DNA of 64,000 bases from an uncultured Candidatus Rokubacteria bacterium. GTDB taxonomy: Bacteria; Methylomirabilota; Methylomirabilia; Rokubacteriales; DASRDR01. Of the stretch, positions 3,294 through 58,058 are shown piece after piece. Each line of letters begins with the position of its first letter. The first letter of the stretch is position 1. The stretch covers positions 224,001-288,000 of the forward strand of contig CAWDVE010000013.1 in assembly GCA_963805625.1 (NCBI GenBank). The letters are read 5' to 3'. The notes beneath the pieces are model-generated. The model was not told the DNA's origin. It did not search any database and saw only the letters and a program-made list of their open reading frames with translations. The position numbers and the translations under genes are program-made.

Positions 3294-4403
3294 CTACCGG
3301 CGCCGGAACAGCAGCACGGTGGCGATGCCTGCCGCTCCGAGCGTGGCGTAGAGGAGTCCCGGCGAGCCGGTCGCGAGCAGTGTGGTGGCGGCCAGCGGAC
3401 CAAGGAAGCCCGACCCCACGCGCGCCGCATTGATGATCCCGATCGCGCTGGCATCGGCGCGCCGCGCGACCTGCGCGACCATCAGCGGGAAGAACGGAGC
3501 GATCGCCAGGGACTGTACCCCGCGCAACACGACGAAGGCCCAGAAGGAACGCGTGCTGCCGAGCAGCACCAGCGCGATCGACGACGCCACCAGCAGTCCC
3601 GCCAGGAGGCGCCGCTCCGAGATCTGCTCGGCGAGGACCGGCGCCGCCAGGCCACCCACGGCCGCCGCCGCGCCGGCGACGAAGATCAGGAGGCCGCTCG
3701 CCTCCACCAGGTCGTCCATGCCCACGCCGAGTCCCGGCAGCACCCTGGGGAGGACCGCCGCCAGGAACGTTTCCTGGGACGAAGCCACGAGGACCAGAGC
3801 CGCCACGAGGGTGATGTCCCGGGTCAGCATCCGCCGGCTCGCGCCGGCCTCGTGCGGCACCGCGGAAGGGCTCGGCATGCCCCATTGGAGGAGCGACGCC
3901 GAGATCACCAGCACCATCGCGCCGATGAGGTAGGTCAGCCGGAACCCGAGCCGCGCGGCCGCGACGGCTCCCGGCAACGGCCCCACGAGGGTACCGAGGA
4001 CCAGGGCCGACTGGATCGCCGCCAGGCGACGTCGCATGACTGTCGGGTCCGACTCCCGGCCGGCGATGACGAAGGCCAGTGTGGAGAACGATCCGACGGT
4101 GCCGAGCAGGAGGCGCGCGATGAGGAGCTCGATGACCGAGTGAGCCATGGCCGTGGCCAAAAAGCCCAGCCCCTGGAGCGTCTGGACGAGGACGCACACG
4201 GCCTTGGGGTCCGTCCGCTCCCCGTAGCGCGCCCAGATCGGCCCCGTCACCACCGCCGCCAGCGACGGGACGCCGAGGATCCAGCCCGTCCAGGCGAGCG
4301 TCCCCGCCGGCCCGGACGTGCTCAGTCGCTCGACCTGGAAGGGCAGCGCCACGAACACGAAGCTCCACGCGAGGGAGCCCAGGAAGGTGACCGCGATCAG
4401 CAC
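3294..4403 (-). CDS. MFS transporter
   Basis: About 11-12 hydrophobic segments, WARYGER loop, ARLLLG and GPLPG motifs. The start abuts an inverted-repeat element. Confidence 0.85.
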   Translation of the reverse strand: MLIAVTFLGSLAWSFVFVALPFQVERLSTSGPAGTLAWTGWILGVPSLAAVVTGPIWARYGERTDPKAVCVLVQTLQGLGFLATAMAHSVIELLIARLLLGTVGSFSTLAFVIAGRESDPTVMRRRLAAIQSALVLGTLVGPLPGAVAAARLGFRLTYLIGAMVLVISASLLQWGMPSPSAVPHEAGASRRMLTRDITLVAALVLVASSQETFLAAVLPRVLPGLGVGMDDLVEASGLLIFVAGAAAAVGGLAAPVLAEQISERRLLAGLLVASSIALVLLGSTRSFWAFVVLRGVQSLAIAPFFPLMVAQVARRADASAIGIINAARVGSGFLGPLAATTLLATGSPGLLYATLGAAGIATVLLFRRR

Positions 4404-4541
4404 GGGGTCAGACTTTGACTTCTAAACAATCAGCGTGGGTCAGGCTTTGACTGCTGGGCAATTCCGGTTCCGACCCGCTCGGGACCCGGGGCCCCGGAGC
4501 ACGCCCAACCAGGAACGTTCAGAAGTCAAAGTCTGACCCCG
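4403..4541. repeat. 139-bp element with perfect 21-bp terminal inverted repeats (MITE/REP-like)
   Basis: CGGGGTCAGACTTTGACTTCT (4403-4423) is the exact reverse complement of 4521-4541. A third, degenerate copy GGGTCAGGCTTTGACTGCT lies at 4437-4455. Confidence 0.75.
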
Positions 4542-5543
4542 CTACGGCCAGAGCGGGAGGCCGGTTAGTCCCGCCGTCTCCGGCTGACCCGTCATGAGGT
4601 TCGCGTTCTGGACGGCCTGGCCCGCAGCGCCCTTGCCGAGGTTGTCCAGGGCGGCGATGGCCAGCGCGAGGCCCGTCTCCCGGTTGACCGCATAGGCCAC
4701 GAAGACCACGTTCGATCCGGTCGTCCACTTGGTCCGGGGACTCCGGCCGCCCTCTATCCGCACCACCCGGACAAACGGCTCGTCGCCGTACACGGCCCGG
4801 GCGGCTTCCTCGAGCCGGGCCGCGGTCACGACGCCCCGCGGCCGCGCGTAGCAGGTCGCGAGGATCCCGCGCGTCATCGGGACCAGGTGCGGGGTAAAGG
4901 CGAGCGTGGCCCGCCGGCCGCCGAGCCGCGTCAGGGCCTCCTGCATCTCCGCCGCGTGGGGATGGTCGGCAAGGCCGTAGGCCAGCACGTCCTCGTTGGT
5001 CTCGGCGTAACCGAACCCGCCCGCCCCACCGCCGCGGCCGGCGCCGCTCACGCCCGTCTTGGCGTCGATCACGAGGCCCTCCGGCTCCACCAGCCCCTCG
5101 GCGACGAGCGGCGCCAGCGCCAGCAGCGCCGCCACCGGATAGCAGCCCGGGTCCGCGACGCGGGATGACCGCGCGACGGCGGCGCGAGTGCCCGGCAGCT
5201 CGGTCAGCCCGTAGGTCCAGCCGTCGACGAAGCGGTGGTCTCCGCCCACGTCGACGACCTTCACGTCCCGCGGAACCCGCGCGAGCGGCTCGCGCGACTT
5301 GCCCGTCGGCAGCGAGGCGAAGAGAACATCGACGCCGTGGAGCTCCTCGGGGACGAACGGCTGAATGACGAGACTGCCCGTCGGGTGCCCGGCCAGAGCC
5401 GGGAACTGCTGAGAGAGCCTCTGGCCCGCCGTGGTCTCACCGCTCGCGTAGACGACCTCGAACGCCGGATGGCCCACGCAGAGTCGCAGGAGCTCGCTCC
5501 CGCCGTACCCGCTCACCCCGACGATGCCGACCCGCGCCCCCAT
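4542..5543 (-). CDS. argC: N-acetyl-gamma-glutamyl-phosphate reductase
   Basis: GVSGYGG, catalytic PGCY, DAKTGVSGAGR, FTPHLVPMTRGI, DNLGKGAAGQAVQN. Confidence 0.95.
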   Translation of the reverse strand: MGARVGIVGVSGYGGSELLRLCVGHPAFEVVYASGETTAGQRLSQQFPALAGHPTGSLVIQPFVPEELHGVDVLFASLPTGKSREPLARVPRDVKVVDVGGDHRFVDGWTYGLTELPGTRAAVARSSRVADPGCYPVAALLALAPLVAEGLVEPEGLVIDAKTGVSGAGRGGGAGGFGYAETNEDVLAYGLADHPHAAEMQEALTRLGGRRATLAFTPHLVPMTRGILATCYARPRGVVTAARLEEAARAVYGDEPFVRVVRIEGGRSPRTKWTTGSNVVFVAYAVNRETGLALAIAALDNLGKGAAGQAVQNANLMTGQPETAGLTGLPLWP

Positions 5544-8731: not shown

Positions 8732-9958
8732 TCAGATCGGCCGCCTGGCCGCCGTGCCGGCCAGCGCGGTCGCGACCGCCCCGAGGACGCACGCCCCCGC
8801 GGCGACCGCGAAGACGGCACTCGTCCGGCCCGTGACGTCGATGACCGCGCCCGTGACGACGTCGCCGAGCGCCGCCATCCCGTACCCGACGCCGTTCATG
8901 AACCCGACGCCTGCGCCGACGCTCCGGGGGCCGAGGAGCTCCGCCCCCAGCACGGTGAACGAGGGGAACGGGCCGAACACGAGAAACCCGGCGGCGAAGA
9001 GCAGCACGAGACTGCGGGCATCTGGCGGGACGCCCATGAGCCCGAGCGTCGCCCCCGCCGCGAGGACGAGACACAGCACGATCAGCCGGGAATGGTTGCC
9101 GCCGAGGAAGCGGTCGACGGCGTCTCCCCCGGCGAGGGCCCCGAGGGCCATCCCCACCGGCAGGGCCAGCGGGATCCACGCGACCCCCGGACTCGCCGCA
9201 CTTCCGGTGCCCAGCAGGTGCGACGGCACCCACACGAGGAGACCGAGGCGGGCCCAGTTCGCGAAGCCGAATCCGAGTGACGCGAAGAGGAACGCGCGGT
9301 TCGAGAAGGCGGCGCGGAGACGGGCGCCGAGGGACGCAGTCGCCTCACCGGCCACGCTGGCGGGACGCGGCAGGGGGCCAGACTCGCCATCCTCCGCCCG
9401 CGGCGGGAGGCCGAGATCCTCAGGGCGATCCCGCGCGAACAGCCAGACCACCGCCGCACCCCCGAGGAGCAGGAGGACCGGGAGCCGCAGGACCCAGCGC
9501 CACGAGAGCCACGTGAGGACGAGCGCCGCCGCTCCGAACGTCACCACCGACGAGAAGCCGGCCGCGAAATTGAAGACGCCGAACGCCCAGCCGCGCTCGC
9601 GCGGCGCCCACCAGGCGGCGATGAGGCGGCTTGCCGGCGCGAAGCCCATCGACTGCGCGGGGCCGTTCAGGGCCCAGGGAATCGCGAGGCTCCAGAAGTC
9701 GCCGCCGAAGCTCGTGAGCCAGTTCAGGGCGCACGAGCTCACGGCACCGAGCGCGACCAGGCGCCGGCCGCCCACGCGATCCGCGAAGTGCCCACTCACG
9801 AGCTGTCCGGCCCCATAGAGGATCAGGCCGGCGCCGCTGATCCAGCCGATCTCGGTGGCGCTCAGTCCCAGCTCGGCCCGGAGCCCCGGAATCGCCCAGC
9901 CGAGGTTCTGCCGGCCGGTGTAGTAGACGAGATAGCACACGCTCGTCGCGAGGAGCAC
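8732..9958 (-). CDS. MFS transporter, OPA (GlpT/UhpT-like) family; start may lie further upstream
   Basis: YLVYYTGRQN, GHFADRVGGR and AWWAPRERG motifs. The frame stays open upstream through FRRAQRR. Confidence 0.85.
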   Translation of the reverse strand: MLLATSVCYLVYYTGRQNLGWAIPGLRAELGLSATEIGWISGAGLILYGAGQLVSGHFADRVGGRRLVALGAVSSCALNWLTSFGGDFWSLAIPWALNGPAQSMGFAPASRLIAAWWAPRERGWAFGVFNFAAGFSSVVTFGAAALVLTWLSWRWVLRLPVLLLLGGAAVVWLFARDRPEDLGLPPRAEDGESGPLPRPASVAGEATASLGARLRAAFSNRAFLFASLGFGFANWARLGLLVWVPSHLLGTGSAASPGVAWIPLALPVGMALGALAGGDAVDRFLGGNHSRLIVLCLVLAAGATLGLMGVPPDARSLVLLFAAGFLVFGPFPSFTVLGAELLGPRSVGAGVGFMNGVGYGMAALGDVVTGAVIDVTGRTSAVFAVAAGACVLGAVATALAGTAARRPI

Positions 9959-10031
9959 CCGCCGCTGCGCGCGGCGGAACGCGGGGGACGCCGGCTCGGG
10001 CGAGCCTACGCGGGAGCTCCGGACCGTGGGC

Positions 10032-10604
10032 TCACCGGACGGCGGGCACGGCGGCGAGCGCCTGTCGGAACCGCCGCGCGTATCCGACCACGTCGCGGCC
10101 GAGCCCCCCTTCGGCCCGGCCCTGGCTGACCTTGACGGGCACGACGAACGGACCGTCCTCGGCGAGAATGCGATCGAACGCCTGCTCGAGCTCGGTCTCG
10201 TTCCGAGGCTCCAGTACCTTCTCGATCCCCGCCCCCCGGGCCATCTGGGCGAAGCTCGATCGGTGCGCGGTCGCCGTGGGCTGGCCGCCCGTGGTCATGT
10301 GGACCTCGTTGTCCCAGATGACCAGTGCGAAGTTCGCGGGCTGGAGCGTTGCGATCGTGCAGAGCGACCCCAGGTTCATGAGGAGCGACCCGTCCCCGTC
10401 CAGGCACACGACGCGGACGTCCCGGCGGGCCAGCGCGATCCCCAGCCCGATGGACGAGCACTGGCCCATGGCGCCAAACGTGTAGCAGTTGAGCGGCCGG
10501 TCGCCGAGGCGCTGGAGGTCCATCGTGGCCTGGCCGAGGTTCGAGACGATGACCTCGTCGGTGAGCCGACTCACGAGCAGGCGGGTCGCGGTCGCGCGAT
10601 CCAC
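10032..10604 (-). CDS. TPP-binding decarboxylase beta subunit (sulfopyruvate decarboxylase ComE-like)
   Basis: GAMGQCSSIGLGIALA and the TPP motif DGDGSLLMNLG...WDNE...TGGQPT. Confidence 0.85.
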   Translation of the reverse strand: MDRATATRLLVSRLTDEVIVSNLGQATMDLQRLGDRPLNCYTFGAMGQCSSIGLGIALARRDVRVVCLDGDGSLLMNLGSLCTIATLQPANFALVIWDNEVHMTTGGQPTATAHRSSFAQMARGAGIEKVLEPRNETELEQAFDRILAEDGPFVVPVKVSQGRAEGGLGRDVVGYARRFRQALAAVPAVR

Positions 10605-10612
10605 GTCGCGAC

Positions 10613-11128
10613 TCAGCCGAGCTTCCCGCCGGTGAGCTCGGCGGGCAGGACGAAGGCCACGGGGAGCGACTGCGTGTAGCTCAGCTTGATGAGGCCGTCG
10701 GCCTGGGCCTCGAGGTCCGCGACGGAGCGCGGCATGACGTGCCGGATGCCCATGGCGTCGAGGAGGCGCTCGGTGGCCTGGCCCATGGGCACCTGCGCGG
10801 GATTGAACTCGCCGAGGTCGCCCCGGTGGCTGATCACGAGCACGACCGGGAGCTGGGAGGCGATGTTGAGGGAGCCCAGCGTGTTTATGCAGTTGCCGAG
10901 CCCGCTGTTCTGCATCAGGAGCGCCCCCCGCTGCCCCCCGAGCCAGGCCCCGGACAGGATCCCGAGCGCCTCCTCTTCCCGGGTCGCCGTCACGACGGTG
11001 CACGCGGGATCGGCCCAGAGGTGCTCCAGCACGTGCGAGACGATGTAGTCGGGCACCGTCGCGAAGAGGCGGATGTCATTCCGCCGCAGCACGTCCGCCA
11101 CGTGCTTGGACCAGCTCAGATCGGCCAT
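10613..11128 (-). CDS. TPP-dependent decarboxylase alpha subunit (ComD-like)
   Basis: TREEEALGI, LMQNSGLGN, ISHRGDLGE and AQVPMG motifs. Confidence 0.88.
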   Translation of the reverse strand: MADLSWSKHVADVLRRNDIRLFATVPDYIVSHVLEHLWADPACTVVTATREEEALGILSGAWLGGQRGALLMQNSGLGNCINTLGSLNIASQLPVVLVISHRGDLGEFNPAQVPMGQATERLLDAMGIRHVMPRSVADLEAQADGLIKLSYTQSLPVAFVLPAELTGGKLG

Positions 11129-13734: not shown

Positions 13735-15948
13735 TCAGTCCTCGTCGGCCGCCGCGCGCGCGACGGCGCCGCGATATTGGCGGAAGTGCCGCCACGCCTG
13801 ACGGAGACCCCCGACCCCGGGCCCCGGCAAGCCGGTGCGGCCCGGCTTTCGGCCCGGGCGAACCATGGCCCAGCGGCACACCGCGCCGAGATAGCGGGCG
13901 CGGGCGCCGAGTGAGTCGTGCAGGAGGAACAGCACCGCATTCCGGCTGATCGGGTCGAGCTCGTCCACCCGCTCGGCGGCGCGGAACAGGCGGCGCCCCG
14001 CCACCGTCTCGAGGTCCCGCTCGAGCCCGTCCCGCGGCGCACTGCGCAGGAAGTCCGGCGGCATCGGCAGCCCCAGCTCGCGGGACAACACCGCCGCCGG
14101 CACCCAGAATCCCCGCGGCGCCCGCATGGCGACCACCCACCGTGCCAGCCGCTCCCAGTCGAGGTCGGGGCAGCTCCGGAGGATCGCCAGGATGTCCCAG
14201 CCGGCACGGAGTCCGTGCGAGAAGCAGTGCTGCGCGCAGTGGACCACCGAGTGCAGAAGCAGGCCCTCCGGATCGAGCGTGTCGATCTCCTCGGCCGACG
14301 CCAGGGGGCGAGCGCGTCCCAGCATCTCCCCTTCTGGCAGCCCCCAGTGAGGCGCGGAGATCCGGGTGTGGATCTCCACCAGGATGCCCTGGACCGTCAC
14401 CGGGGCGAGGTGGTGCGTCGACGTCGGCCGGGCGTCGGGAACGCCGCGAAATCCGAGCTCGAGCAGCCGCCGGCGGAGGGCCGGCCCGCGGTCGGGGCCG
14501 ACGTAGAGGTCGATGTCACCGGTGGCGCGAGGCGGAACCGGGGTCCCTTCCTCGCGAGCCCGGAGGGTCAGCGCCATCCCCTTCAGCAGGACACCCCGCG
14601 CGCCGATCGAGCGGAGGCCGGCCTCCAACTGCCGGAGCACGTCCCGCTGCACCAGTTCGCGGATCCCCTCGCGCACCGCCGCTGCCCGCAAGGCCTCCGT
14701 GAAGAAGGCGGGCGCCCAGCGCGCGAGTTCCGCATCGCCCAGCGCGGGCGTGAGCGGCCGGGCCAGCCCGCACGCCGCCAGGTACGACGCCCATCGCTTC
14801 CAGTCGACGTCAGGCCGGGAGAGGATCCGCGCGGGCTCCTCCGTCCACCGCGCCCCGGGCTCCGCCGCGGCCCGGAGGAAGACCCGGGCGGCCCCCGGCC
14901 CGTTGATGTACCCGGCGTTAAGCTCGCCCCGCCGCCGGCTGTCCTGGATCACGAGCCACGCGGCCCGCCGCTCCGCGGCGAGCCCCGGGTCCACGAGCCG
15001 CAGTCTCAGCGCCGCGACCGCGCCCGCGTCGGACGTGATGTGGAGGCACAGGTCACAGATGCCGAGATAGCGCGCCCGGAACGGGAAGTGCTCGAAGCCG
15101 GGGAGCGCCCGCAGCTCGTCTCGCAAGCGGGCCGGCCCCGACGTGCGGATCGTGTCGAGGATCGGGTCCTGACGATGACGCTCCAGCAGGGTCCCGAGCG
15201 TCTCGGTCCGGAGCGAGCCGACGATCAGGGGCGACGATTCCGGCGCGAAGTAGGCCGGCCCGTTGCACGCTGTCAGGCGGCCGTCGTCCGTCACCGCCGG
15301 AATCGCGCACGCGGAGCAGAAGCCGTCCACCGCGCCGCCCATCGTCTCGGTCGGCAGGCCACGCGCCCGGCCGACCGCCTGGAGTCCGTAGAATCGCAGA
15401 CGCGTGCCGCGAAGGCCCTCGAACGGCGCGACCAGCGGGGCGAGCCCGTCCTCCCCTGCCGGCCCGGCCGGCACGACCAGGCTGATCCGGACGGGCAGGC
15501 CCACCTTCTCGGCGGCGCGGGCGATGAGGAGCGCCGGGGTCGGGCCCTGGAACTCGTCGTGGTAGCGGTCGACGCTGACGGCCAGCGAACCGAGGCCAGC
15601 CCTCCGGAGCGCCTGGACGCCGTGCCACGCCCGGGCGGCGGTGCGCCCCCAGGATCCGTTCGTCGTCAGCGACGTGGCGACGCCGAGTTGGCGCGCCGTC
15701 CGGACGAGCCGCAGGATGGTCCGAGGGCGGAGCATCGGCTCCCCGCCCGTCAGGTTGATCGCCCGGACGTCGCCTGCGGCCGCCTCACGGACACGGTCGA
15801 GAAGCTCTCGCTCCGTCGGCTCGTCCCGGAGATCGGGGCTGCTCTCCACGCTGCAGTGGCCGCATCGCATGTTGCAGCGGCGCGTCACCATGAGAGCTAT
15901 CGACGTGGCCGGCGGGAGCGTCTTCACTCGCATGCGGGCCGAGCTCAT
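13735..15948 (-). CDS. Radical SAM domain (with Cys-rich SPASM/Twitch-like extension) fused to a nucleotidyltransferase-family domain
   Basis: CNMRCGHC, TGGEP and TNG, then CSAC...ACNG...CDLC. C-terminal VLLKGMAL...TGDIDLYV...VEIH. ATGA overlap with the upstream kinase gene. Confidence 0.88.
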   Translation of the reverse strand: MSSARMRVKTLPPATSIALMVTRRCNMRCGHCSVESSPDLRDEPTERELLDRVREAAAGDVRAINLTGGEPMLRPRTILRLVRTARQLGVATSLTTNGSWGRTAARAWHGVQALRRAGLGSLAVSVDRYHDEFQGPTPALLIARAAEKVGLPVRISLVVPAGPAGEDGLAPLVAPFEGLRGTRLRFYGLQAVGRARGLPTETMGGAVDGFCSACAIPAVTDDGRLTACNGPAYFAPESSPLIVGSLRTETLGTLLERHRQDPILDTIRTSGPARLRDELRALPGFEHFPFRARYLGICDLCLHITSDAGAVAALRLRLVDPGLAAERRAAWLVIQDSRRRGELNAGYINGPGAARVFLRAAAEPGARWTEEPARILSRPDVDWKRWASYLAACGLARPLTPALGDAELARWAPAFFTEALRAAAVREGIRELVQRDVLRQLEAGLRSIGARGVLLKGMALTLRAREEGTPVPPRATGDIDLYVGPDRGPALRRRLLELGFRGVPDARPTSTHHLAPVTVQGILVEIHTRISAPHWGLPEGEMLGRARPLASAEEIDTLDPEGLLLHSVVHCAQHCFSHGLRAGWDILAILRSCPDLDWERLARWVVAMRAPRGFWVPAAVLSRELGLPMPPDFLRSAPRDGLERDLETVAGRRLFRAAERVDELDPISRNAVLFLLHDSLGARARYLGAVCRWAMVRPGRKPGRTGLPGPGVGGLRQAWRHFRQYRGAVARAAADED

Positions 15949-16826
15949 GCCGGGGCGCGAGATCCCACGAGCGCCTCGACGGCCTCGGCCATCCGGGGAA
16001 GCGGTCCGCGACCGAGATCGAAGGCCGGGACGCGGTCGGCGAGGGGCGCGAGGATCCGGATGGCGTCCCCGAGCGTCCGGCGGGACCGCTGGTTCGTGTA
16101 GGGGACGAGCGCCAGCAGGGCATGCGCGGGAGCGATCTGCTGGGGGCGCGCAGGCTCGGCGACGCCACCGCGCCGGGAGAGAAACACGATGGCGGCGAGC
16201 CGCACCGCCGTGGATCGCAGGCACGGCTCGATCTCGTCGGGATGAAACAGTTGCGAGTCGGCGAGCGCGACACTGGACGGGCCGCGCATGACTCGCTCGA
16301 AGAGGTCGTCGCCCAGGAGCGCGCGGCTCGTCGACCTGAGGGACACGCGTCGCGGAGCCGGCCGTGCCTCGGCCGCCGCCGGCTCCACCATGGCAACGTC
16401 ATCGCCGAGCAACGCGGCGCCGCGCGCCCACAGCGCGCAGGCGAGCGTCGACTTGCCAGCCTCGCCACGCCCGGCGAGCAGAATTCCCCGGCCGTTCCAT
16501 GCAACCAGGGCACCGTGCGCGATCACGACGGGCGACTCCACGATCGCCGCGACCGCTCCGTACTCCACGGCGCTGACGGCTCGGGCAGCGCTCGGCACGC
16601 GCAGATCAGCGCCCGCCGAGGACCGGACCCACCACTCCAAGTCTGCCCCGTTGTCATTCAGGCGGTCGACCCGCCAGGCACGGCTCGGCTCACCCTCTTC
16701 GTGGGTCGCCCAGGGGCGGAACACGGTCGCCGCCAGGGTCCGGACGGCGGGGTCGTCGGACGTGAGCTCGAAGCGCAGGGGTCCCGCCGTCCAGCGAATG
16801 GGCGGGCCAGCAGACGCCTGGGTCAC
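15945..16826 (-). CDS. HPr kinase-related P-loop kinase
   Basis: HGALV, Walker A GRGEAGKST and LLGDD motifs of the HprK-related family. Confidence 0.85.
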   Translation of the reverse strand: MTQASAGPPIRWTAGPLRFELTSDDPAVRTLAATVFRPWATHEEGEPSRAWRVDRLNDNGADLEWWVRSSAGADLRVPSAARAVSAVEYGAVAAIVESPVVIAHGALVAWNGRGILLAGRGEAGKSTLACALWARGAALLGDDVAMVEPAAAEARPAPRRVSLRSTSRALLGDDLFERVMRGPSSVALADSQLFHPDEIEPCLRSTAVRLAAIVFLSRRGGVAEPARPQQIAPAHALLALVPYTNQRSRRTLGDAIRILAPLADRVPAFDLGRGPLPRMAEAVEALVGSRAPA

Positions 16827-17110
16827 GAGACCGGCACGATCGCCCCGTGCCGGATCAGCTCGTCGAGGAACGACGAGACGTCTCGGACAGCGGCCTCCGG
16901 GGCCAGCGCCGGGAACCGCTCCCGCAGGGCAGCCGTGAGGTCCTCTGGGCGAGCGGGAGTGGCGAGCCGCTCCCAGAGCCGGCTGCCAGTGGGGTTCAGT
17001 ACGAGGGCACTACGGGACGTCCGGTGATAGAGCACCACCCGATCGCCGACGGGGGAAACCTCGACCTGCTCGGATCGCGCGTAGGCGGGATCCACGGCCT
17101 CGCTCACCAC
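16823..17110 (-). CDS. PqqD-family RiPP recognition element (RRE)
   Basis: 95 aa with LVLNPTGSRLWERL...DVSSFLDELIRHGAI, the PqqD pattern. GTGA overlap with the kinase. Confidence 0.88.
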   Translation of the reverse strand: MVSEAVDPAYARSEQVEVSPVGDRVVLYHRTSRSALVLNPTGSRLWERLATPARPEDLTAALRERFPALAPEAAVRDVSSFLDELIRHGAIVPVS

Positions 17111-17248
17111 GCGAGGCGCCGGCGCATCTGGCGCCCCGCCCTACCCTCCACCGTCCACATCAAGCGAATTATCGACTCCCGCATAGAGGACGTCACAGCA
17201 CCCTAGCATCCGGGACGCGAGGCTCGTCAAACTCGTCAACTCGCCAGC

Positions 17249-18490
17249 TCAGAGGCCCGCGCGGATAGCCTGCCCGAGGCGGCGGATCCCCTCGGCAATC
17301 CGTTCCGGCGGCTGGAGACTGAAGGAAAGGCGCAGGTTGTGGGTGCCACGGCCGTCGGGAAAGCACTCGGTCCCGGCCAGCGCGACGACGCGCTCCTCGA
17401 CCGCGCGCGCCTGCACCTTGGTCATGTCGGCCCTGGACGGCAGGGTCAGCCAGAGGAAGAACCCGCCCTCGGTCCGGGTCCACGTCACACCCGCCGGCAT
17501 CTCACGCGCGAGCGCCTCGTTCATCGCGTCGCGCCGCGCACGGTAGGCAACCCGGAGCGTCTCGATGTGAGCCGCGAGCCCGCCTCCCTTCATGAACGTC
17601 CCCACGACCATCGACGCGAAGCCGTTCGTGCTCCCCTCCGCCTTGAAGGCGAGCACGCGCTCGATCACGGCCGGATCGGCGAGGACGAACCCGAGGCGGA
17701 CGCCGGGCGCGACGATCTTCGAGAAGGTGCCGAGCCGCACGACGAGACCCTCGCGGTCGAGCGCGTGGAGGGTCGGGATCGGCTCTCCCTCGAACCTGAG
17801 GTCCCGGTACGCGTCGTCCTCGATGATGGGCACGCCGTGGCGCGCCGCGATGTCGAGCAGGACGCGGCGCCGGCCGAGCGACATCGTCACCCCGGCCGGG
17901 TTGTTGAACGTCGGAATCGTGTAGATGAACCGCGGCGGAGTCCCCGCCGCCTCGAGCCGCCGCACCTCTCGCTCCAGGCCCTCGACGTCGAGCCCCTCGT
18001 CGTCGAGGGACACCGGCACCGTTCGCACCCCTTGGAACCGGATGTGGTGGATCGTTCCCAGGAAGGTCGGCGCCTCACAGAGACACACGTCGCCGGAACT
18101 CGCCAGCGCCTGCACCACGAGCGCGATCGCCTGGGAGGAGCCGTTGGTCATCACGAGGCTCCCGGCCTCGACGAGCCGCCCCTCCTCGGCCTCGAGCTTC
18201 CGTCCGAGCTCGGCCAGGAGGAGCGGGTTGCCCCCGACGTTGCCGTACTGAAGCGCCACCGCGTACCTCGCCGGGTCGCGAAGCGACTCCTCCGCCGCCG
18301 CGGCAAGACCGGCAGCCGGGAACAGCGACGGGTCGGGCATGCCGTAGGCCAGCGAGATGATGTCGGGCGGGACCGCCCCCGCCCGGGGCATGGGGGTGGC
18401 CGCGCGCACGCGCGCGTTGAAGCGGTCCGGAGTCCAGGCAAACCTGCTCAACTCCGCCGTCGTGCCGTCCTGCCGCGCATCACGAGCCAT
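17249..18490 (-). CDS. PLP-dependent aminotransferase class I/II (LysN/ARO8-like)
   Basis: TNGSSQA, YTIPTFNNPAG, IIEDDAY, GTFSKIVAPGVRLG. Confidence 0.93.
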   Translation of the reverse strand: MARDARQDGTTAELSRFAWTPDRFNARVRAATPMPRAGAVPPDIISLAYGMPDPSLFPAAGLAAAAEESLRDPARYAVALQYGNVGGNPLLLAELGRKLEAEEGRLVEAGSLVMTNGSSQAIALVVQALASSGDVCLCEAPTFLGTIHHIRFQGVRTVPVSLDDEGLDVEGLEREVRRLEAAGTPPRFIYTIPTFNNPAGVTMSLGRRRVLLDIAARHGVPIIEDDAYRDLRFEGEPIPTLHALDREGLVVRLGTFSKIVAPGVRLGFVLADPAVIERVLAFKAEGSTNGFASMVVGTFMKGGGLAAHIETLRVAYRARRDAMNEALAREMPAGVTWTRTEGGFFLWLTLPSRADMTKVQARAVEERVVALAGTECFPDGRGTHNLRLSFSLQPPERIAEGIRRLGQAIRAGL

Positions 18491-21999: not shown

Positions 22000-23265
22000 C
22001 TACTCTTCGCGGGAGCGGATCGCGATGATCAGGACGCCGGTCAGGTGCGGCAGGCCACCGATCAGAGCCGGGCGCCGGGGCGGGACGTCCATCACGGTCG
22101 CCAGCTCTCCGACCGGCCCGCGCTTGATGCGCACCAGGATCCGGACGATCGGCCGCCTGATGCCGAGCGGCTGGATCTCCATCTCGCGCCCGCCGGGGAG
22201 CGCGAAGCGCTGCAGCATGCCGACGGGCATCCGCGTCTCGAAGGCGCTCACGGGCTCATAGTGGGAGTACTGAAACACCTCCCGGAGCCGCGGCACCCAG
22301 AGCTGGAGACGGACCGGCTGGCCGCACCCGCTCTGAAGCTCCGCGGGAGGTCCCGTCCCCGGCGACGGAGCGGGGTTCGCGACGTCGGGTGTGGGCGGGA
22401 GCCCGGCCTGGGGCGCGCTACCGGGAGGGCCGCCAGGAGGACCGATCGGCGGCCCCCCCGGCCGCGCGATCCCCGCGGGCGGATTCGATGCGAACATCAC
22501 GAGCGCGTACACGCAAACCTGCTGGGCGGGCGGTCCACCCGGAGCCGCCGTCGGCGGCGGAAGGACCCCCGGTGGCGGCAGCGGGGGAAGCTGGGCACGA
22601 GCGGGCCCGACCGCGACGAGAAGCCCCACGAGGGCTGCGACGAAGAGAGCGAAGCCCGGACCGAGAACCTCGCGAAGACGCTTCCTCGCGTGGTGCAGGC
22701 GGGACATCACGGTCCCCATGGGAATGCCGAGCACCTCCGCGATCTCCCGGTACTGGAGCCCTTCGATGTCGCTGAGGATGATAATGGCTCGGTGGTGCTC
22801 TGACAAGGAATCGAGTCCTTTTCGGATTCGCTCACGGGTCTCCACACCGGTTGCAACGTCCTCAGGATCGGGATCGGTCGACGTCGCCGTGCGCTCCCAC
22901 TCCTCCGGGGGGACGTCCTCGGCGCCGAGCGATTTTGCCCGGGTGGCCCGCTGGCGTTTCCGGTCGAGTGCAACGTTCATCGTGATGCGGAAGAGCCAGG
23001 TGTAGAACGCCGAGTCCCCCTTGAAGGCCGGCAGGGCGCGGAAGGCCTTGACGAAGGCCTCCTGGGCGACATCGAGCGCCTCCTCCTGATCCCGGAGCAC
23101 CTGGTATGCCAACCGGAACACCTTGCGCTTGTACTTCTCGACCAGGGGCTCGAACGCCTCCGTGTCGCCGGCCTGGACCCGCCGGACCGCCTCGCGGTCG
23201 TCTTCGCTCACAAGGCCGACCCGGCGGGGCGCCGGGCCGGAAGGCGTCCCGCCGCCCACCGCCAT
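22000..23265 (-). CDS. ECF sigma factor with C-terminal TM/signal-like helix and Pro-rich extracytoplasmic domain (start may be GTG 23211)
   Basis: Region 2 DVAQEAF...FYTWLFRI, region 4 YREIAEVLGIPMGTVMSRLHHAR, then FALFVAALVGLLVAVGPARA-Q in the same frame. Confidence 0.88.
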   Translation of the reverse strand: MAVGGGTPSGPAPRRVGLVSEDDREAVRRVQAGDTEAFEPLVEKYKRKVFRLAYQVLRDQEEALDVAQEAFVKAFRALPAFKGDSAFYTWLFRITMNVALDRKRQRATRAKSLGAEDVPPEEWERTATSTDPDPEDVATGVETRERIRKGLDSLSEHHRAIIILSDIEGLQYREIAEVLGIPMGTVMSRLHHARKRLREVLGPGFALFVAALVGLLVAVGPARAQLPPLPPPGVLPPPTAAPGGPPAQQVCVYALVMFASNPPAGIARPGGPPIGPPGGPPGSAPQAGLPPTPDVANPAPSPGTGPPAELQSGCGQPVRLQLWVPRLREVFQYSHYEPVSAFETRMPVGMLQRFALPGGREMEIQPLGIRRPIVRILVRIKRGPVGELATVMDVPPRRPALIGGLPHLTGVLIIAIRSREE

Positions 23266-24714: not shown

Positions 24715-24851
24715 GCCGGCGACCCTTGGACGCTATCATTGCAAAGACGTTGCAATACAGGCTGTTGGGCTGTCAAGGGAAACATTCCTTGCCGCCCCGT
24801 CCTCAGATCCGGTAAGGTACCGAATTGCCGAAGCGAATTCGGCTCAACCTC

Positions 24852-26558
24852 ATGATCTCCGGCCATTCCCCGTCGTTCGGACGATGGCTGACCGGGACAG
24901 GCCTCCTCTCGGACGCAGAGCTGGCGCGGGCCGAGGCACACCGTCAGTCCACCGGCGAGCATCTGTCCGATGCTCTGGTCCGGCTCGGGCTCTCGAGCGC
25001 GGAGGAGGTGGGCCAAGCCCTGGCCCGTCACCTCGAGATCGCCTACGTCGGGCGTGAAGAGTTCCCCTCGAGCCCGCCATTCCTCCAGCGGCTGTCGCCC
25101 CAGTACATGCGCCAGTACCGCTTCTGCCCCCTCGCCGTCGAGGACGGCGTCCTCGTGGTGGCGTGTGCCGATCCAACCGACCCGACGGTCGTCGACGAGC
25201 TCCGCGGAACGCTGGGAATCGACATCCGCCTGGCCGTGGCGACCGAGACCTCGATCCTCGAGGCGATCGAGCGGTACTTCGGTGCCGGCTCGACGGCGGT
25301 CCAGAAGGTCATCGAGACGATTGGCGACGACGAGCGAGCGGACGAGGTGGGCAGTGAGGATGTCACCTCCCTCCGAGACATGGCATTCGACGCGCCGGTG
25401 GTCCGTCTGGTCAACCTCCTCATCGAGAACGCGATCAAGGCGAACGCCTCCGACGTGCACATCGAGCCGTTCGAGGACAGCCTCCGGGTCCGCTACCGGA
25501 TCGACGGCGTGCTCTTCGACGCCGAGACCCCGCCCAAGCGTCTCCGGGCTGCGATCACCTCGCGGATCAAGATCATGGCGGAGCTGAACATCGCCGAACG
25601 CCGGCTGCCACAGGACGGGCGTATCCGCATGGGCCTGGAGGGACGCCGGCTCGACATCCGCGTTTCGACCATCCCAACCCTCCACGGCGAGAGCGTCGTG
25701 ATGCGCATCCTGGACAGGGCGGCGATCCTCCTCCCCCTCGACCGTCTCGGCTTCGACGACCGCGCCCGCCGGGCGATCGAGCACGTCATCGAGCTTCCGC
25801 ACGGCATGCTGCTGGTCACGGGCCCGACGGGCTCCGGGAAGACCACCACCCTCTATGGCGCGCTCCATAAGATCAACTCACCAGATAAGAAGATCATCAC
25901 CATCGAGGATCCGGTCGAGTACCAGCTCCAGGGCATCAACCAGATCCACGTGAAGCCCAAGATCGGATTGACGTTCGCCGCCGGCCTCAGGCACATCGTC
26001 CGCCAAGACCCCGACGTGATCATGGTCGGGGAGATCCGCGACCTCGAGACGGCCGATATCTCTATCCACGCCGCGCTGACGGGGCACCTGGTCTTTTCGA
26101 CGCTCCACACCAACGACGCGCCCGGCGCACTGACCCGGCTTCTCGACATGGGCGTGGAGCCGTACCTCGTGGCCTCGGTCCTGGAGGGCGTCCTGGCCCA
26201 GCGCCTCGTCCGCCGGGTGTGTGCGGGCTGCCGCAAGCCCTACGAGCCCGACGCGGGCGAGCTCCGGGCGCTGGGCATTGACCGTGTCCCCGCGGGCGCG
26301 CGGCTGTCGCGCGGGACCGGCTGCGGGGATTGTCGCGGCACGGGCTACCGGGGTCGCACCGGGATCTACGAGTTCATGGGGATGAACGAGGAACTCCGCG
26401 GCCTAGCTCTCCGAAAGACCCCGGCACACGAGATCCGCCAGTGGGCGGTCGCTGCCGGCATGACGACGCTCCGTCAGGACGGCTGGCACAAGTGCCGCCT
26501 CGGCGTGACGACCGTGGAGGAGGTCCTCCGCGTGACCCACCAGGACTGGGAGGCGTAG
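24852..26558 (+). CDS. gspE: Type II secretion ATPase
   Basis: ASDVHIEP, ERRLPQDGR, GPTGSGKTTT, RQDPDVIMVGEIRD, tetracysteine motif. Confidence 0.95.
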   Translation: MISGHSPSFGRWLTGTGLLSDAELARAEAHRQSTGEHLSDALVRLGLSSAEEVGQALARHLEIAYVGREEFPSSPPFLQRLSPQYMRQYRFCPLAVEDGVLVVACADPTDPTVVDELRGTLGIDIRLAVATETSILEAIERYFGAGSTAVQKVIETIGDDERADEVGSEDVTSLRDMAFDAPVVRLVNLLIENAIKANASDVHIEPFEDSLRVRYRIDGVLFDAETPPKRLRAAITSRIKIMAELNIAERRLPQDGRIRMGLEGRRLDIRVSTIPTLHGESVVMRILDRAAILLPLDRLGFDDRARRAIEHVIELPHGMLLVTGPTGSGKTTTLYGALHKINSPDKKIITIEDPVEYQLQGINQIHVKPKIGLTFAAGLRHIVRQDPDVIMVGEIRDLETADISIHAALTGHLVFSTLHTNDAPGALTRLLDMGVEPYLVASVLEGVLAQRLVRRVCAGCRKPYEPDAGELRALGIDRVPAGARLSRGTGCGDCRGTGYRGRTGIYEFMGMNEELRGLALRKTPAHEIRQWAVAAGMTTLRQDGWHKCRLGVTTVEEVLRVTHQDWEA

Positions 26559-27772
26559 TGCCAACCTTCGCCTATCGTGCCGCCGACCGGACCGGGCGGA
26601 CCGTCGACGGCATGATGGAGGCCTACGACGCCAACGCGGTCGTCGAGCGCCTCCACCGGGAGCACTATTACCCGCTCCGGGTCGAGGCGACGGCCGAGCA
26701 AGGCCGGCCTGGCTGGCGCCTGCTCGGCGCGCCGCGCGTACCCTCGCGCGACGTCCTCGACTTCACGCAGCAGCTCGCCACCCTGGTGGAGGCGGGCCTG
26801 CCACTCGAGCGGGCCCTGGTCGTGCTCAGCGAGGTGTCCGCCAGCCGGCGGCTCCGGCAGATCGTGCAGGACGTGACGCAGAGCGTCCGGTCGGGATCGA
26901 CGCTCGCCGACGCGCTGGCCCACCACCAGCCACGCCCGTTCTCGCGTCTGTATGTGAATACCGTCCGTGCCGGCGAGCGCGGCGGCGTCCTCGAGATCGC
27001 CCTCCGCCGGCTCGCCGAGCACCTAGAGGGAGCCCGAGAGCTCCGCGAGGCGGTCGTCTCGGCCCTGATCTACCCGGCGCTCCTCCTCGTCGTGGGCACG
27101 GCCGCGGTCATCTTCCTGCTGACCTTCGTCCTGCCGCGCTTCGCGGTCATCCTGGCGGACCTCGGCCAGACGCTCCCTCTGCCCACGCGCCTCGTGATGG
27201 GGGTCAGCGAGGTGTTCGTGACGTACTGGTGGGCGGTCGCGGCGGTGGTGATCGCGGTCGCTGGCTTCTGGCAGGCCATGGCCCGGTCTGAGGCGGGCCG
27301 GCTCCAGCTGGACACGGGGCTTCTCGCGCTCCCGGGCGCGGGCGCGGTGCTGCGAAAGATCGAGGTGGGGCGCGCCATCCGCACGCTCGGCACTCTGCTC
27401 TCGTCCGGAGTGCCCCTGCTCGGCGCGCTCGACGTCGCCCGGGAGGGCGCCGGGAACCGCGTGATCTCGAACGCTCTCGTCGCCGTCCACGGAGGCGTCA
27501 AGCGTGGCGAGGGGCTCGCCCGGCCGATGGCCGAGACGGGCGTCTTCCCGTCCCTGGTCGTCCACATGGTGCGAGTGGGCGAGGAAACCGGTCGGCTCGA
27601 CGACATGCTCGGGCGGGTCGCCGGCACCTACGAGCGCGAGGTTCGCGTCGCGGTCCGCCGGCTGGTGGCGACGCTCGAGCCCGCCATCATCGTCGTGCTG
27701 GGCGCCGTGGTGCTGACGATCGTGCTCGCGATCCTCCTAGCGATCCTGAGCGTGAACGAGCTGCCTCTGTGA
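26558..27772 (+). CDS. gspF: Type II secretion inner-membrane platform protein
   Basis: FTQQLATLVEAGLPL, AGERGG, ALIYP, VGEETGRL, LEP. Confidence 0.93.
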   Translation: MPTFAYRAADRTGRTVDGMMEAYDANAVVERLHREHYYPLRVEATAEQGRPGWRLLGAPRVPSRDVLDFTQQLATLVEAGLPLERALVVLSEVSASRRLRQIVQDVTQSVRSGSTLADALAHHQPRPFSRLYVNTVRAGERGGVLEIALRRLAEHLEGARELREAVVSALIYPALLLVVGTAAVIFLLTFVLPRFAVILADLGQTLPLPTRLVMGVSEVFVTYWWAVAAVVIAVAGFWQAMARSEAGRLQLDTGLLALPGAGAVLRKIEVGRAIRTLGTLLSSGVPLLGALDVAREGAGNRVISNALVAVHGGVKRGEGLARPMAETGVFPSLVVHMVRVGEETGRLDDMLGRVAGTYEREVRVAVRRLVATLEPAIIVVLGAVVLTIVLAILLAILSVNELPL

Positions 27773-27780
27773 GGTCCCTG

Positions 27781-28275
27781 ATGCCCATTCCGCGAAAACC
27801 CGATCGTCCGCCCTCCACCCCGCCAGGTGGACGCCGCCGCCGGCCGAGCACCCTCGATCAAGCTGGGTTCACGCTCATCGAGCTCCTGATCGTCGTCATC
27901 ATCCTGGGCGTCCTCGCCGGCCTCGTGGGCCCGCGACTGTTCGGGCGGGTGGGCCAGTCACGCCAGGCGGCCGCCCGCGTGCAGATCGAGCTGCTCGGGG
28001 CGGCCCTCGACCAGTTCAAGCTCGACGTCGGGCGCTACCCCTCGAGCCAGGAGGGGCTCCAGGCGCTCCAGCAGAGCCCCGGAAACGCGCCCGGCTGGGA
28101 GGGCCCGTACCTCAAGAAGGAGGTTCCCCGGGACCCGTGGGGGAGCCCGTATCAGTACCGGAGTCCCGGCGAGCACGGTGAGTACGACCTCTCCTCGCTG
28201 GGCTCGGACGGCGCCGAGGGAGGGGACGGCGAGGCCACGGACTTGACGAGCTGGAGTGAGGGCAAGACCCGGTGA
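27781..28275 (+). CDS. gspG: Major pseudopilin
   Basis: GFTLIELL, YPSSQEGLQAL, GPYL...DPWG...SLGSDG. Start is either 27769 or 27781. Confidence 0.95.
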   Translation: MPIPRKPDRPPSTPPGGRRRRPSTLDQAGFTLIELLIVVIILGVLAGLVGPRLFGRVGQSRQAAARVQIELLGAALDQFKLDVGRYPSSQEGLQALQQSPGNAPGWEGPYLKKEVPRDPWGSPYQYRSPGEHGEYDLSSLGSDGAEGGDGEATDLTSWSEGKTR

Positions 28276-28733
28276 GCCCGCACGCTCCGGGACGCGACGC
28301 GAGGGGACTCACCCTCATGGAACTCGTCGTCGTCCTCGCGGTGCTGGCCACCGTGACGGCCTTCGCGCTGCCGTCCATCCGTCGCGGCAGCGAGGGTCTC
28401 CAGCTCCGGGCGGGGGCCGGCCGCGTGGCGTCCCTCCTGCGCGAGGCACGCCAGCAGGCCGTCACGCACCGGCGGCCCACGCGGGTCGCCCTCGAGCCGA
28501 ACCACCGCGGCGCCGCCCTGGCGTGGGACGGAAGCAACGAACCCCTGCGCCGCGTCGAGCTGCCGGATCGGTTCCGTCTGGAGGCATCCGCGGGCAGCGA
28601 GACCCTCACGTTCTCCTCGCGCGGACTGGTCCGCGACGCTCGGTGGGTGGTGGCGGGTCCCGGCGGCCGCCGCCTCGTCGTCGAGGTCCACGGCGTGACC
28701 GGGCGGGTGGCGGTCGCGCCCCCCGCGCCCTGA
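28272..28733 (+). CDS. gspH: Minor pseudopilin H
   Basis: Class III signal RG-LTLMELV; operon position. Confidence 0.85.
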   Translation: MSPHAPGRDARGLTLMELVVVLAVLATVTAFALPSIRRGSEGLQLRAGAGRVASLLREARQQAVTHRRPTRVALEPNHRGAALAWDGSNEPLRRVELPDRFRLEASAGSETLTFSSRGLVRDARWVVAGPGGRRLVVEVHGVTGRVAVAPPAP

Positions 28734-28742
28734 GCCCGTCAC

Positions 28743-29150
28743 ATGAGACCATCGGTCGGCGCCCGCAGGCAGGACAAGGGGTTCACGCTCCTCGAGGTTC
28801 TCGTGGCGCTCTTCGTCCTCGCGACCACGGTCGTGGCGGTCCTCCAGCTCTTCGGGGGCGGGCTCCGGTTAGCCCGGGCCGCTGGCGACCACGCCGATGC
28901 CGCGCTCCTCGCGAGCGCAAAGCTCGCCGACCTCGAACCTGGCCCCCTGGCCGAGGGGTCGACCGAAGGTTCGGACGGCCCGTACCGCTGGACTCGTCGG
29001 GTGACGCTCGACCCGGCGCTCCTTCCCGTCCAGCCCGACACTCCGGAGGCGATGCTCATCCGGCTGGCGCGCGTGAGCGTGGAGGTCCAGTGGGGACAGG
29101 GCCGCCGTTTCGAGCTCGCCACGCTCCGCGTCTGGCGGATCGGCTCGTGA
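28743..29150 (+). CDS. gspI: Minor pseudopilin I
   Basis: KG-FTLLEVL; operon position. Confidence 0.85.
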   Translation: MRPSVGARRQDKGFTLLEVLVALFVLATTVVAVLQLFGGGLRLARAAGDHADAALLASAKLADLEPGPLAEGSTEGSDGPYRWTRRVTLDPALLPVQPDTPEAMLIRLARVSVEVQWGQGRRFELATLRVWRIGS

Positions 29151-29782
29151 GCTGGCGGGCGCTCCGGGCGAGTCTCCGCCCCGACGGCCGGGGCTTCACG
29201 CTCGTCGAGGTCATTCTCGCCGTGTCCATCCTTGCGGTCGTCATCCTCCTGGCCACTGCCGCGCTGCGCGTCGGCCTCCGCGCCTGGGAGGCCGGACAGC
29301 GGCGCGCGAACCTCCAGCAGGAGAGCCGCGCGCTCGTCGAGTTGGTCAGCGAGGCACTTGCAGGCGCATCGGCCTACCGCGGGCGCCTGGGCCAGAACCC
29401 CGAGCGTATCGTGCTCTTCGAGGGGGAGCCGGAGGAAGTGCGCTTCGTGACGAGCGCGCCGCCGCTTACGCTGGACAACCCGGTCGCCCCGTTCCATGCG
29501 GTCGTCCTCGGGCGCAAGGGGCAGGACGCGTTGCGGCTCATCGAACGGCTCGTGCCCTCGGACGAGCCATTCGCGCCCGGGCCCGAGCGCGTCCTGTCCC
29601 GGTCCGTCACCCGCTTCAGCCTCGCCTACCGGGACGAGGCCGGGGCGTGGCAGGAGCGGTGGGACGGCCGCGAGGCGGGCGGGCTGCCGACCGCAGTGCG
29701 GCTCGAGCTCTCGGTAGCCGGCCTCGCCCGGGCGACACCCGCGCTCGTCGTCGCGCTGCCGATGGGAAAGCAGGCCCAGTGA
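29147..29782 (+). CDS. gspJ: Minor pseudopilin J
   Basis: RG-FTLVEVI, C-terminal LPTAVRLEL; GTGA overlap. Confidence 0.85.
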   Translation: MSWRALRASLRPDGRGFTLVEVILAVSILAVVILLATAALRVGLRAWEAGQRRANLQQESRALVELVSEALAGASAYRGRLGQNPERIVLFEGEPEEVRFVTSAPPLTLDNPVAPFHAVVLGRKGQDALRLIERLVPSDEPFAPGPERVLSRSVTRFSLAYRDEAGAWQERWDGREAGGLPTAVRLELSVAGLARATPALVVALPMGKQAQ

Positions 29783-32120: not shown

Positions 32121-32121
32121 G

Positions 32122-32736: not shown

Positions 32737-32739
32737 GCC

Positions 32740-47268: not shown

Positions 47269-47271
47269 GGG

Positions 47272-52986: not shown

Positions 52987-52999
52987 GGTCCCCGGCCCG

Positions 53000-53323: not shown

Positions 53324-53325
53324 CG

Positions 53326-55973: not shown

Positions 55974-56022
55974 CTCGAGTCAGGTCGGGATGCCGCTCGC
56001 CCCGCCCCCCGTCGTCAGAGAC

Positions 56023-56349: not shown

Positions 56350-56374
56350 GGTCGTCCGTCCTCCCCTCGCTCCG

Positions 56375-56791: not shown

Positions 56792-56805
56792 GGGCGCCGT
56801 CTCCT

Positions 56806-58035: not shown

Positions 58036-58058
58036 GCGCCGTCTCCTCAGTGCTGCGT

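Follow-up and report, generated by a model that had tools for sequence, protein, structure and literature searches.

A RiPP-like cassette with a radical SAM–nucleotidyltransferase fusion in Candidatus Rokubacteria and its linked family of short precursor peptides

The window analyzed here is a 64,000-nucleotide stretch of the genome of an uncultured Candidatus Rokubacteria bacterium (assembly GCA_963805625.1, contig CAWDVE010000013.1, positions 224,001 to 288,000). Its minus strand carries a cassette of three genes, which encode a RiPP recognition element (RRE; RiPPs are peptides made on ribosomes and modified after translation), a kinase resembling HPr kinase (HprK) and a protein that joins a radical S-adenosylmethionine (SAM) domain to a nucleotidyltransferase domain. 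All three open reading frames were found where the original prediction, made from the sequence alone, had placed them. In related loci the genes are accompanied by short precursor peptides, here called the YAG family, of which a remnant is left in the window. The features of the locus, in window positions, are as follows:

16823..17110, minus strand: stand-alone RRE of the PqqD/lasso-B1 type, 95 aa (Pfam PqqD; lasso RRE relatives).
15945..16826, minus strand: probable HprK-type peptide kinase, 293 aa (TIGR04352 match below cut-off; catalytic residues).
13735..15948, minus strand: radical SAM–nucleotidyltransferase fusion, 737 aa (NTP_transf_5 joined through a helical linker to an EpeE-like radical SAM domain).
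15013..15903, minus strand: predicted radical SAM and one-cluster (twitch/T-SPASM) domain, fusion residues 16-312 (TIGR04078, EpeE alignment, Foldseek).
14122..14811, minus strand: predicted Pol-beta-type nucleotidyltransferase domain, fusion residues 380-609 (Pfam NTP_transf_5, conserved residues, fold).
17141..17194, minus strand: precursor gene remnant, 17 codons and a stop (comparison with relatives' arrays).
17168..17231, minus strand: putative promoter-like stretch that preceded the deleted array (blastn sharing, consensus scan).

The RRE and kinase genes and the kinase and fusion genes are joined by GTGA and ATGA stop/start overlaps, in agreement with the translational coupling that had been proposed. 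Pfam placed Radical_SAM (residues 21-137, 62.9 bits) and NTP_transf_5 (PF14907; residues 380-609, 92.2 bits against a cut-off of 31.2) in the single 737-aa chain, and the CxxxCxxC, CSAC, CDLC, LKG and DIDL motifs named beforehand are all present in it. The GC content of the cassette is in line with that of its flanks, which Pfam identified as a pyridoxal phosphate-dependent aminotransferase gene and a convergent gene of the polysaccharide-deacetylase family. The three enzyme genes are intact: ratios of nonsynonymous to synonymous substitution against three relatives were 0.20-0.35, and strongly conserved columns had only two departures in the window's genes. Rfam had no match in the window.

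The cassette is linked to a dedicated family of precursor peptides. One to five short genes lie just upstream of the RRE gene in related loci, and their products share the pattern YxxPx[VI]ExV[LM][TS]xx[DE]LxRE[VI]x[YF]AG followed by a variable tail. A profile built from 34 peptides found such precursors in every locus in which 1.6 kb or more of DNA lies upstream of the fusion (30/30), and 24 of these loci played no part in building it. Among 61 related genomes, from which the profile was partly built, precursors were detected in all nine genomes with the fusion, and 50 genomes had neither; one genome that is 68% complete (G006) had a precursor and no fusion, and another (G008) had weak remnants of both. 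The gene order of peptide(s), RRE, kinase and fusion is constant and the surroundings change from locus to locus. Short precursors with a conserved leader and a variable core thus stand beside an RRE and modifying enzymes, the arrangement by which RiPP clusters are recognized. The search for co-occurring short peptides that the original prediction had called for therefore had a positive outcome, and its concern that homologous cassettes might sit in polysaccharide loci with no peptide was not borne out, since these cassettes carry their own precursors. The profile matched 663 clusters at 50% identity. None of the 10 precursors tested had an NCBIfam match, none of the 41 tested had a credible Pfam match, and the precursors were found in Atlas only in unnamed clusters.

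The three enzymes also travel together. Where 1 kb or more of upstream DNA was available, a kinase gene was always present (49/49 loci). An RRE gene was found in 28 of the 30 loci with enough upstream DNA, and wherever the downstream DNA reached 900 bp the transferase part followed the radical part (39/39 loci), so the cassette and its fusion are conserved across genomes, as had been asked. These counts come from 60 loci. The metagenome loci were gathered with the radical-domain segment (54 loci, L178 being left out as distant); in a first genome scan, seven of 80 loci were true members and the rest were generic matches to the radical SAM motif.

The fusion is real and old, and not a chimera or a product of chance; an assembly artifact had been considered beforehand, and the recurrence of the fusion across several phyla speaks against it. 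A search with the fusion gave 209 matching proteins, 405-1290 aa long. The 120 matches listed had 44-95% identity and aligned mostly over 88-100% of their length; the few with named hosts were from Binatia, Vicinamibacterales, Gemmatimonadales, Abditibacteriaceae and Sumerlaeaceae. The best named match, with 79% identity and the same flanking genes, was in a Candidatus Rokubacteria genome. The fusion was intact in eight of the 61 related genomes (the window's own included), among them a sister genome (G013) whose copy is 95% identical to that of the window; it was in four pieces in G001 and reduced to remnants between the same flanking genes in G008. Within the order, the fusion is confined to the host genus, and its distribution and that of the precursor across phyla are patchy: the radical segment was found in one of 301 genomes around G064, and the precursor profile in one of 401 around G061, the seed genome in each case. 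There were 32 shorter matches to the radical domain, the close ones resembling fragments or frameshifts, and its next relatives as stand-alone proteins were about 26-31% identical. Plasmid relatives (25-28% identity) sit in unrelated contexts, viral contigs gave one weak match and no family member, and Atlas held only generic clusters for the radical domain.

The tail that follows Y-A-G is hypervariable in sequence and nearly constant in one respect. Of the top 150 cluster representatives, 149 fit the pattern, and 140 tails were analyzed after nine longer than 15 aa were dropped. Ser or Thr was present in 138 of the 140 tails, whereas 10,000 shuffles averaged 120.3 such tails and never exceeded 133, and it was present in 65 of 66 tails of the loci peptides; the tails are selected for Ser/Thr. 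The first such residue was most often the third after Gly (40/138). Ser/Thr was C-terminal in only 27 of 140 tails and otherwise internal at variable positions, and Thr made up about half of the hydroxyl residues. Most tails had 3-12 residues; 76 of the 149 were under 10 aa and 73 reached 10 aa. Cys occurred in the tail of eight of the 149 peptides and Asp or Glu at tail position 7-9 in 39, and there was no penultimate Thr in the tails.

The YAG system resembles that of the linear polyphosphorylated peptides (LPP), encoded by lppA-K-B-S-D-N (Popov et al., 2026; PMC13381572). According to the main text of that work, LPP clusters have one to three precursors with a YxxP leader and a variable C-terminus, a stand-alone RRE, a kinase similar to HprK, an NTP transferase that is uncharacterized, and no cyclase. 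The leader consensus is YxxPxVLxHQxIxFETxxS in LPP versus YxxPxVExVLTxxDLxREVxYAG here, with YxxP and an [VI]-x-aromatic...S register in common. If that register is read correctly, the leader end [VI]-x-Y-A-G-x-x-S aligns with I-x-F-E-T-x-x-S of LPP, which suggests by analogy that YAG ends the leader and that the tail is the core. The word "radical" occurs 0 times in the same main text, which describes no radical SAM enzyme, whereas the YAG transferase is fused to one. LppK is described there as phosphorylating Ser3 of the LPP consensus and as not accepting Thr, which makes up about half of the hydroxyl residues in the YAG tails. BsfK, as reported in PMC10368454, likewise targets Ser3 and tolerates Thr.

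The RRE matched Pfam PqqD at 50.5 bits (cut-off 23.4), and the best solved relatives of its family profile were the lasso RREs TbiB1 (E 1.7e-10) and TfuB1. The kinase matched Hpr_kinase_C at 30.3 bits, just below the cut-off of 33.3. Its residues H104, G119, K125, D142 and D143 were invariant and S126 nearly so in 42 sequences, with the same spacing as the catalytic residues H148/G163/K169/S170/D186/D187 reported for BsfK. A search for longer kinase forms gave one match and was a weak test. The best NCBIfam matches of the kinase were the HPr-rel-A (TIGR04352/TIGR04353) models, seen in all 42 family members, and the SynChlorMet (ScmC/ScmD) models, seen in 32 of the 42, and in those systems too an HprK-related kinase lies beside a PqqD-family protein. 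All scores were below cut-off (59 vs. 200 for TIGR04352 and 23.7 vs. 125 for the kinase; 26.4 vs. 35 and 25.3 vs. 100 for the RRE), and the two model sets cover neither the YAG precursor nor the fusion. As a separate observation, an AAA_28 gene lies near three loci (L133, L150, and L162).

The radical domain is closer to EpeE than to the SPASM enzymes with which the original prediction had compared it. The CxxxCxxC motif comprises C25, C29 and C32, and five further Cys follow it in the radical domain (C211 and C214 in CSAC, C228, and C298 and C301 in CDLC), one of them replaceable: the likely auxiliary-cluster ligands C211, C228, C298 and C301 were kept in 118-121 of 121 sequences, and Cys214 in 105. 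Pfam gave no SPASM match at E<=1, and the domain appears to lack the two auxiliary clusters of PqqE and of sactipeptide and ranthipeptide synthases, and its extra Cys are assigned to an EpeE/YydG-type domain with one cluster. The best NCBIfam match was TIGR04078 (YydG), over the whole model. In the AlphaFold2 model of the fusion (pLDDT, a per-residue confidence, 86; pTM, a global one, 0.85), the top Foldseek matches of the domain were EpeE (TM-score 0.79 by target, root-mean-square deviation [rmsd] 3.7; 0.59 for PqqE), and the predicted fold is that of a radical SAM enzyme with an extended twitch and one auxiliary cluster, as in EpeE. Likeness to EpeE/YydG (PDB 8ai1-8ai6) extends to four matching auxiliary Cys and to NGxWG and SxDxYH motifs. 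The differences are 18% identity, the fusion to a transferase, the RRE and kinase partners, acidic precursors with a YxxP leader, and one position in the active site. EpeE is described as abstracting a C-alpha hydrogen and as quenching the C-alpha radical with Cys223 (PMC13012085), and in SPASM/twitch enzymes the residues right after an auxiliary-cluster Cys are reported to line the active site (PMC10288494). Placed with the wild-type and C223A EpeE chains, Asn229 of the fusion aligns with Cys223; the column holds Asn in 110 of 121 sequences and Cys in none.

Plain epimerization is doubtful because the residue aligned with the quenching Cys223 is never Cys here. An EpeE-like epimerase could still install D-residues in the tail by way of Cys214 or another donor, with a phosphorylated or nucleotidylated, epipeptide-like product. 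The best family, sequence and structure matches all being to EpeE, the retention of Cys214 in most sequences, and the tolerance of epimerases for variable substrates fit such a role, which we nonetheless hold to be distinctly unlikely: 13 sequences have Ala in place of Cys214 and offer no other Cys close by, and the TIGR04078 score of 74.9 bits is far below the 300-bit cut-off.

A different product would arise if the radical domain made a fixed cross-link within E-x-x-Y-A-G, from Glu to Tyr or from Tyr to a backbone carbon, independently of the tail and with the motif retained in the product. PqqE, which forms a Glu–Tyr link, was the top PDB sequence match for the first 200 residues, and an enzyme with no donor Cys at position 229 would suit bond formation. 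The motif itself is nearly invariant in the 149 representatives (Glu at -6 in 100%, Tyr at -3 in 98% with Phe in the other 2%, Ala in 99% and Gly in 100%), figures that are upper bounds as the positions belonged to the matching pattern. The full-length structural match is to EpeE and not to PqqE, the aromatic residue of YAG is in register with LPP Phe(-3), a leader residue, and the constant fusion to a transferase would be left unexplained. We regard this cross-link as unlikely.

The nucleotidyltransferase domain has the residues expected of an active enzyme of the Pol-beta type. LKG lies at 455-457 (K456-G457) and DIDL at 478-481 (D478-x-D480), and the acidic triad was kept at D478 in 117, at D480 in 120 and at E525 in 118 of 121 sequences. 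Searches by sequence found no solved structure for this part and Foldseek gave no match at E<=0.001; in fold comparisons the predicted model (pLDDT 94) was most like MenT1 (Z 12.7, rmsd 3.2, 174 aligned residues) and ANT(2'')-Ia, an aminoglycoside adenylyltransferase (Z 12.1, rmsd 3.2, 165 aligned), a likeness of fold that is no proof of function. The MenT1 match and the glycosyltransferase-type genes near four loci (L036, L157, L161, and L163) are what a MenA/MenT-like toxin–antitoxin system or a cell-surface tailoring module with incidental small reading frames would lead one to expect. This is extremely improbable given the precursor linkage, the lasso-type RRE and the selection for Ser/Thr; moreover, flanks differ from locus to locus, and the polysaccharide-deacetylase neighbor stays in G008, where the cassette is lost. 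Among relatives in peptide pathways, the annotated nucleotidyltransferase PsmN is said in a review either to add a hexose to phospho-Ser or to act by nucleotidylation, and LppN changed nothing in the heterologous expression described in PMC13381572.

Genes that would release a product do not recur beside the cassette. No peptidase or exporter family recurred among 61 neighbors scanned (52 of the 105 called in metagenome loci and nine from genome loci). LPP clusters are described with an SpI-type peptidase and an MsbA-like exporter, whereas neither was found in the window flanks or among these neighbors. Radical removal of the leader, in which the C-alpha of the invariant Gly is oxidized and the backbone breaks, would account for the absence of an accompanying protease, and it would draw on EpeE-type C-alpha abstraction without a donor; two relatives (G063 and G064) had no B2 or C39 match either, an absence of little weight in incomplete genomes. 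The literature examined holds no precedent for it, housekeeping proteases commonly do this job according to a preprint on fosfazinomycin, and a cyclase-like gene found in two loci would need a free N-terminal amine. We judge radical cleavage to be quite improbable.

The other comparison is with the phosphorylated lasso peptides paeninodin (PadeK), pseudomycoidin (PsmK/PsmN) and the Bradymonas bsf product (BsfK/BsfN), which, as described in PMC9266682 and PMC10368454, likewise combine a lasso-type RRE, an HprK-type kinase and a nucleotidyltransferase that acts on phospho-Ser. In contrast, the YAG core cassette has no B2 protease or cyclase, its tails are too short and mostly without a ring acid, its Ser/Thr are internal and variable in position, and a radical SAM domain is added. 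The absence of these two lasso genes had been noted for the window, and the neighbor scan confirmed it for the core cassette: cyclase C and protease B2 are absent in the window, and B2 was found in none of the scanned loci. Two loci carry a lasso-cyclase-like asparagine synthetase gene, co-directional and before the array (L036:6166-8046, 489.8 bits against a cut-off of 525, and L159:4166-6043), and four of their five tails have Asp or Glu at position 7-9 from Gly, versus 19 of 61 elsewhere, which may point to a sub-branch with a macrolactam. The RRE of L036 is followed by two peptides.

These two loci, together with a lasso-type B1-B2-C cluster in the window's own genome, could be taken to mean that YAG peptides are cyclized by B2 and C encoded elsewhere and that the cassette only tailors them. 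The tail lengths, the 39 of 149 tails with a suitably placed acid and the lack of a penultimate Thr make such a split pathway very improbable; in addition, the B1-B2-C cluster has its own precursors, and the incomplete genomes G062 and G063/G064 had no cyclase match and no B2 match, respectively. That cluster (C16:411482-416230; L215, L225) is separate from the cassette and includes a kinase-looking gene and two precursor-like reading frames of 162-177 aa with a YxxPxL leader and long C-terminal extensions.

Taken together, the findings lead us to favor, on balance, the view that the cassette encodes the enzymes that mature a hitherto undescribed family of RiPPs, in a pathway that combines phosphorylation, nucleotide or sugar transfer and an oxidative radical step; the peptide-modification role originally proposed is supported by the precursor linkage and the Ser/Thr selection. 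The RRE would hold the 40-55-aa precursor by its YxxP leader motif (YxxPx[VI]), and it very probably binds the leader. The kinase would phosphorylate Ser/Thr in the short tail after Y-A-G, which is highly likely. The C-terminal domain of the fusion would add a nucleotide or sugar to the tail phosphate, and transfer onto the phosphate of a nucleoside monophosphate or a hexose is reasonably likely. The EpeE-like domain would then abstract a hydrogen at the modified site and, having no donor Cys, form a new bond from the radical by an oxidative route. An oxidative step at the newly modified residue or at the appended group is the best single option for this domain, held tentatively; it is placed at the modified site because Ser/Thr is the only constant tail feature and the two domains stay fused. 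A host protease would remove the leader. For the nucleotidyl and radical steps, we infer both their order and their chemistry.

Several observations weigh against this pathway. The linkage counts overstate independence, because the loci are relatives of one another and include near-duplicates (L040/L139; L142/L143/L145). In L132, L144 and L150 (also L134) the kinase gene directly follows the peptide gene, with no RRE gene between. Two of the 140 tails are free of Ser/Thr, and the near-invariant Glu and Tyr of ExxYAG fit the fixed cross-link equally well. Among solved structures, the radical domain is nearest to a peptide epimerase, and the spare Cys214 could serve as a hydrogen donor. With no recurring peptidase or exporter, release of a product is conjectural, and NTP_transf_5 chemistry is unsettled even in characterized relatives, LppN having been silent.

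The cassette would work like LPP and paeninodin tailoring, yet it has no SpI peptidase or exporter, no cyclase or B2 and a different leader, and its radical domain has the predicted EpeE fold minus the donor residue. No description of the YAG family was found in the open literature, a scope that leaves most subscription journals and the LPP supplements outside; the supplements of PMC10288494 and PMC10036551 held nothing on PF14907, the motif or Rokubacteria.

At the window's locus itself, the peptide array has been deleted. The 138 bp between the aminotransferase and RRE genes consist of a promoter-like stretch joined directly to the 17-codon remnant, which lies just outside the region covered by the original prediction. 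The remnant reads DVLYAG, an 11-residue Ser-bearing tail and a stop, and is the end of the last precursor gene; its leader and the other copies are gone, and in the sister genome G013 the same place holds a tandem array of five precursor genes (L117:7928-8763). A first placement of reads did not bridge the junction. Contigs of the runs X9 (17123-17332) and X11 (17126-17276) spanned it free of mismatches at a depth of 3-5; since contigs from two public runs bridge the junction, the deletion exists in nature, the runs being from different studies, one of which may be the source sample. A TTGACG...TAGGGT stretch is shared by blastn with the relatives G013, G014 and G001. A sigma-70-like GTGACG-17-GATAAT lies across the deletion junction as a putative promoter, and a consensus scan gave this kind of site once in 3.8 kb (mean of shuffles, 0.0). 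RNA run X20 covered scattered pieces only, which are no evidence of expression. A 22-codon reading frame that opens with the ATG at 17209 was discarded as a precursor candidate, as it has no YxxP leader and starts inside the promoter-like stretch.

The same genome (G000) keeps, at other places, five intact family members that have ribosome-binding sites, four on contig C10 and one on C25:

C10:524203-524331 (L116:10204-10332), C25:13330-13473, C10:366087-366432 and C10:237461-237592: orphan YAG precursor stretches of G000 (shared flanks).

One orphan precursor and an intact phage integrase gene (Pfam, 60.9 bits) stand back to back, and those on C25 and at C10:366k adjoin integrase remnants, which suggests that the peptide genes spread on integrative elements. 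In the sister genomes, integrase remnants were found in one of 11 dispersed-copy regions (L239, two copies; same query). Dispersed precursors were also seen in G009 and G013 (L236:3994-4278, L238:5087-6055, and L239), one adjoining an smpB-like gene and four in tandem in L238. From the shared leader and the enzymes kept intact, we infer that the cassette uses dispersed peptides in trans; in this strain the five members would supply its substrates.

A bolder reading is that the family is a new RiPP class of peptide–nucleotide hybrids. The hypervariable tail of 3-12 residues would be phosphorylated and nucleotidylated, the donor-less, EpeE-derived domain would join or rearrange the nucleotidyl group, and the precursor genes, travelling apart beside integrase remnants, would form a dispersed combinatorial library in Rokubacteria. 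We hold this to be a speculative and rather unlikely possibility; if true, radical chemistry on such a hybrid would be a reaction type not found in the literature searched. More generally, the cassette likely represents a well-defined, testable new RiPP family. Among NTP_transf_5 enzymes of peptide pathways, PsmN is ambiguous and LppN silent, and in a minimal four-part system with an identified substrate, three genes and a 45-aa peptide make the function of such enzymes directly testable. For LppN, Popov et al. (2026) suspected a "missing partner", and the fusion may be of that type; an EpeE-fold enzyme without the donor Cys should reveal uses of the fold beyond epimerization. The YAG family is large and unnamed in Pfam and NCBIfam, and its hosts are uncultured soil and sediment lineages.

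Other features of the genome, its relatives' loci and the window were recorded. A second RiPP-like cluster (G000:C12:71538-77999; L217) has an RRE, a DUF455 ferritin-like enzyme, kinase- and transferase-looking reading frames and further similar ones, and a 48-aa peptide, without a Pfam match, that carries YxxP and ends in a Cys/Trp-rich tail. At 46663-48027 the window has a DUF455 ferritin-like gene and a small unassigned partner, which resemble the enzyme reading frames of that cluster, with no visible peptide. At G000:C17:258386-262998 and C24:97478-100291, PqqD-family genes lie beside kinase- and transferase-looking reading frames and glycosyltransferases; these are HPr-rel-like cassettes in which no peptide was seen. 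In L135, cytochrome P450 genes stand on both sides of the cassette (4275-5540 and 9679-10857). The window also holds an ordinary isc-type iron–sulfur assembly operon (52777-58505; IscS, IscU and HscA confirmed by Pfam) and an ordinary type II secretion operon (24825-35759; ATPase and secretin confirmed). At 22000-23211 it encodes an extracytoplasmic function sigma factor whose long Pro-rich C-terminal extension, without a Pfam match, is kept in sister genomes.

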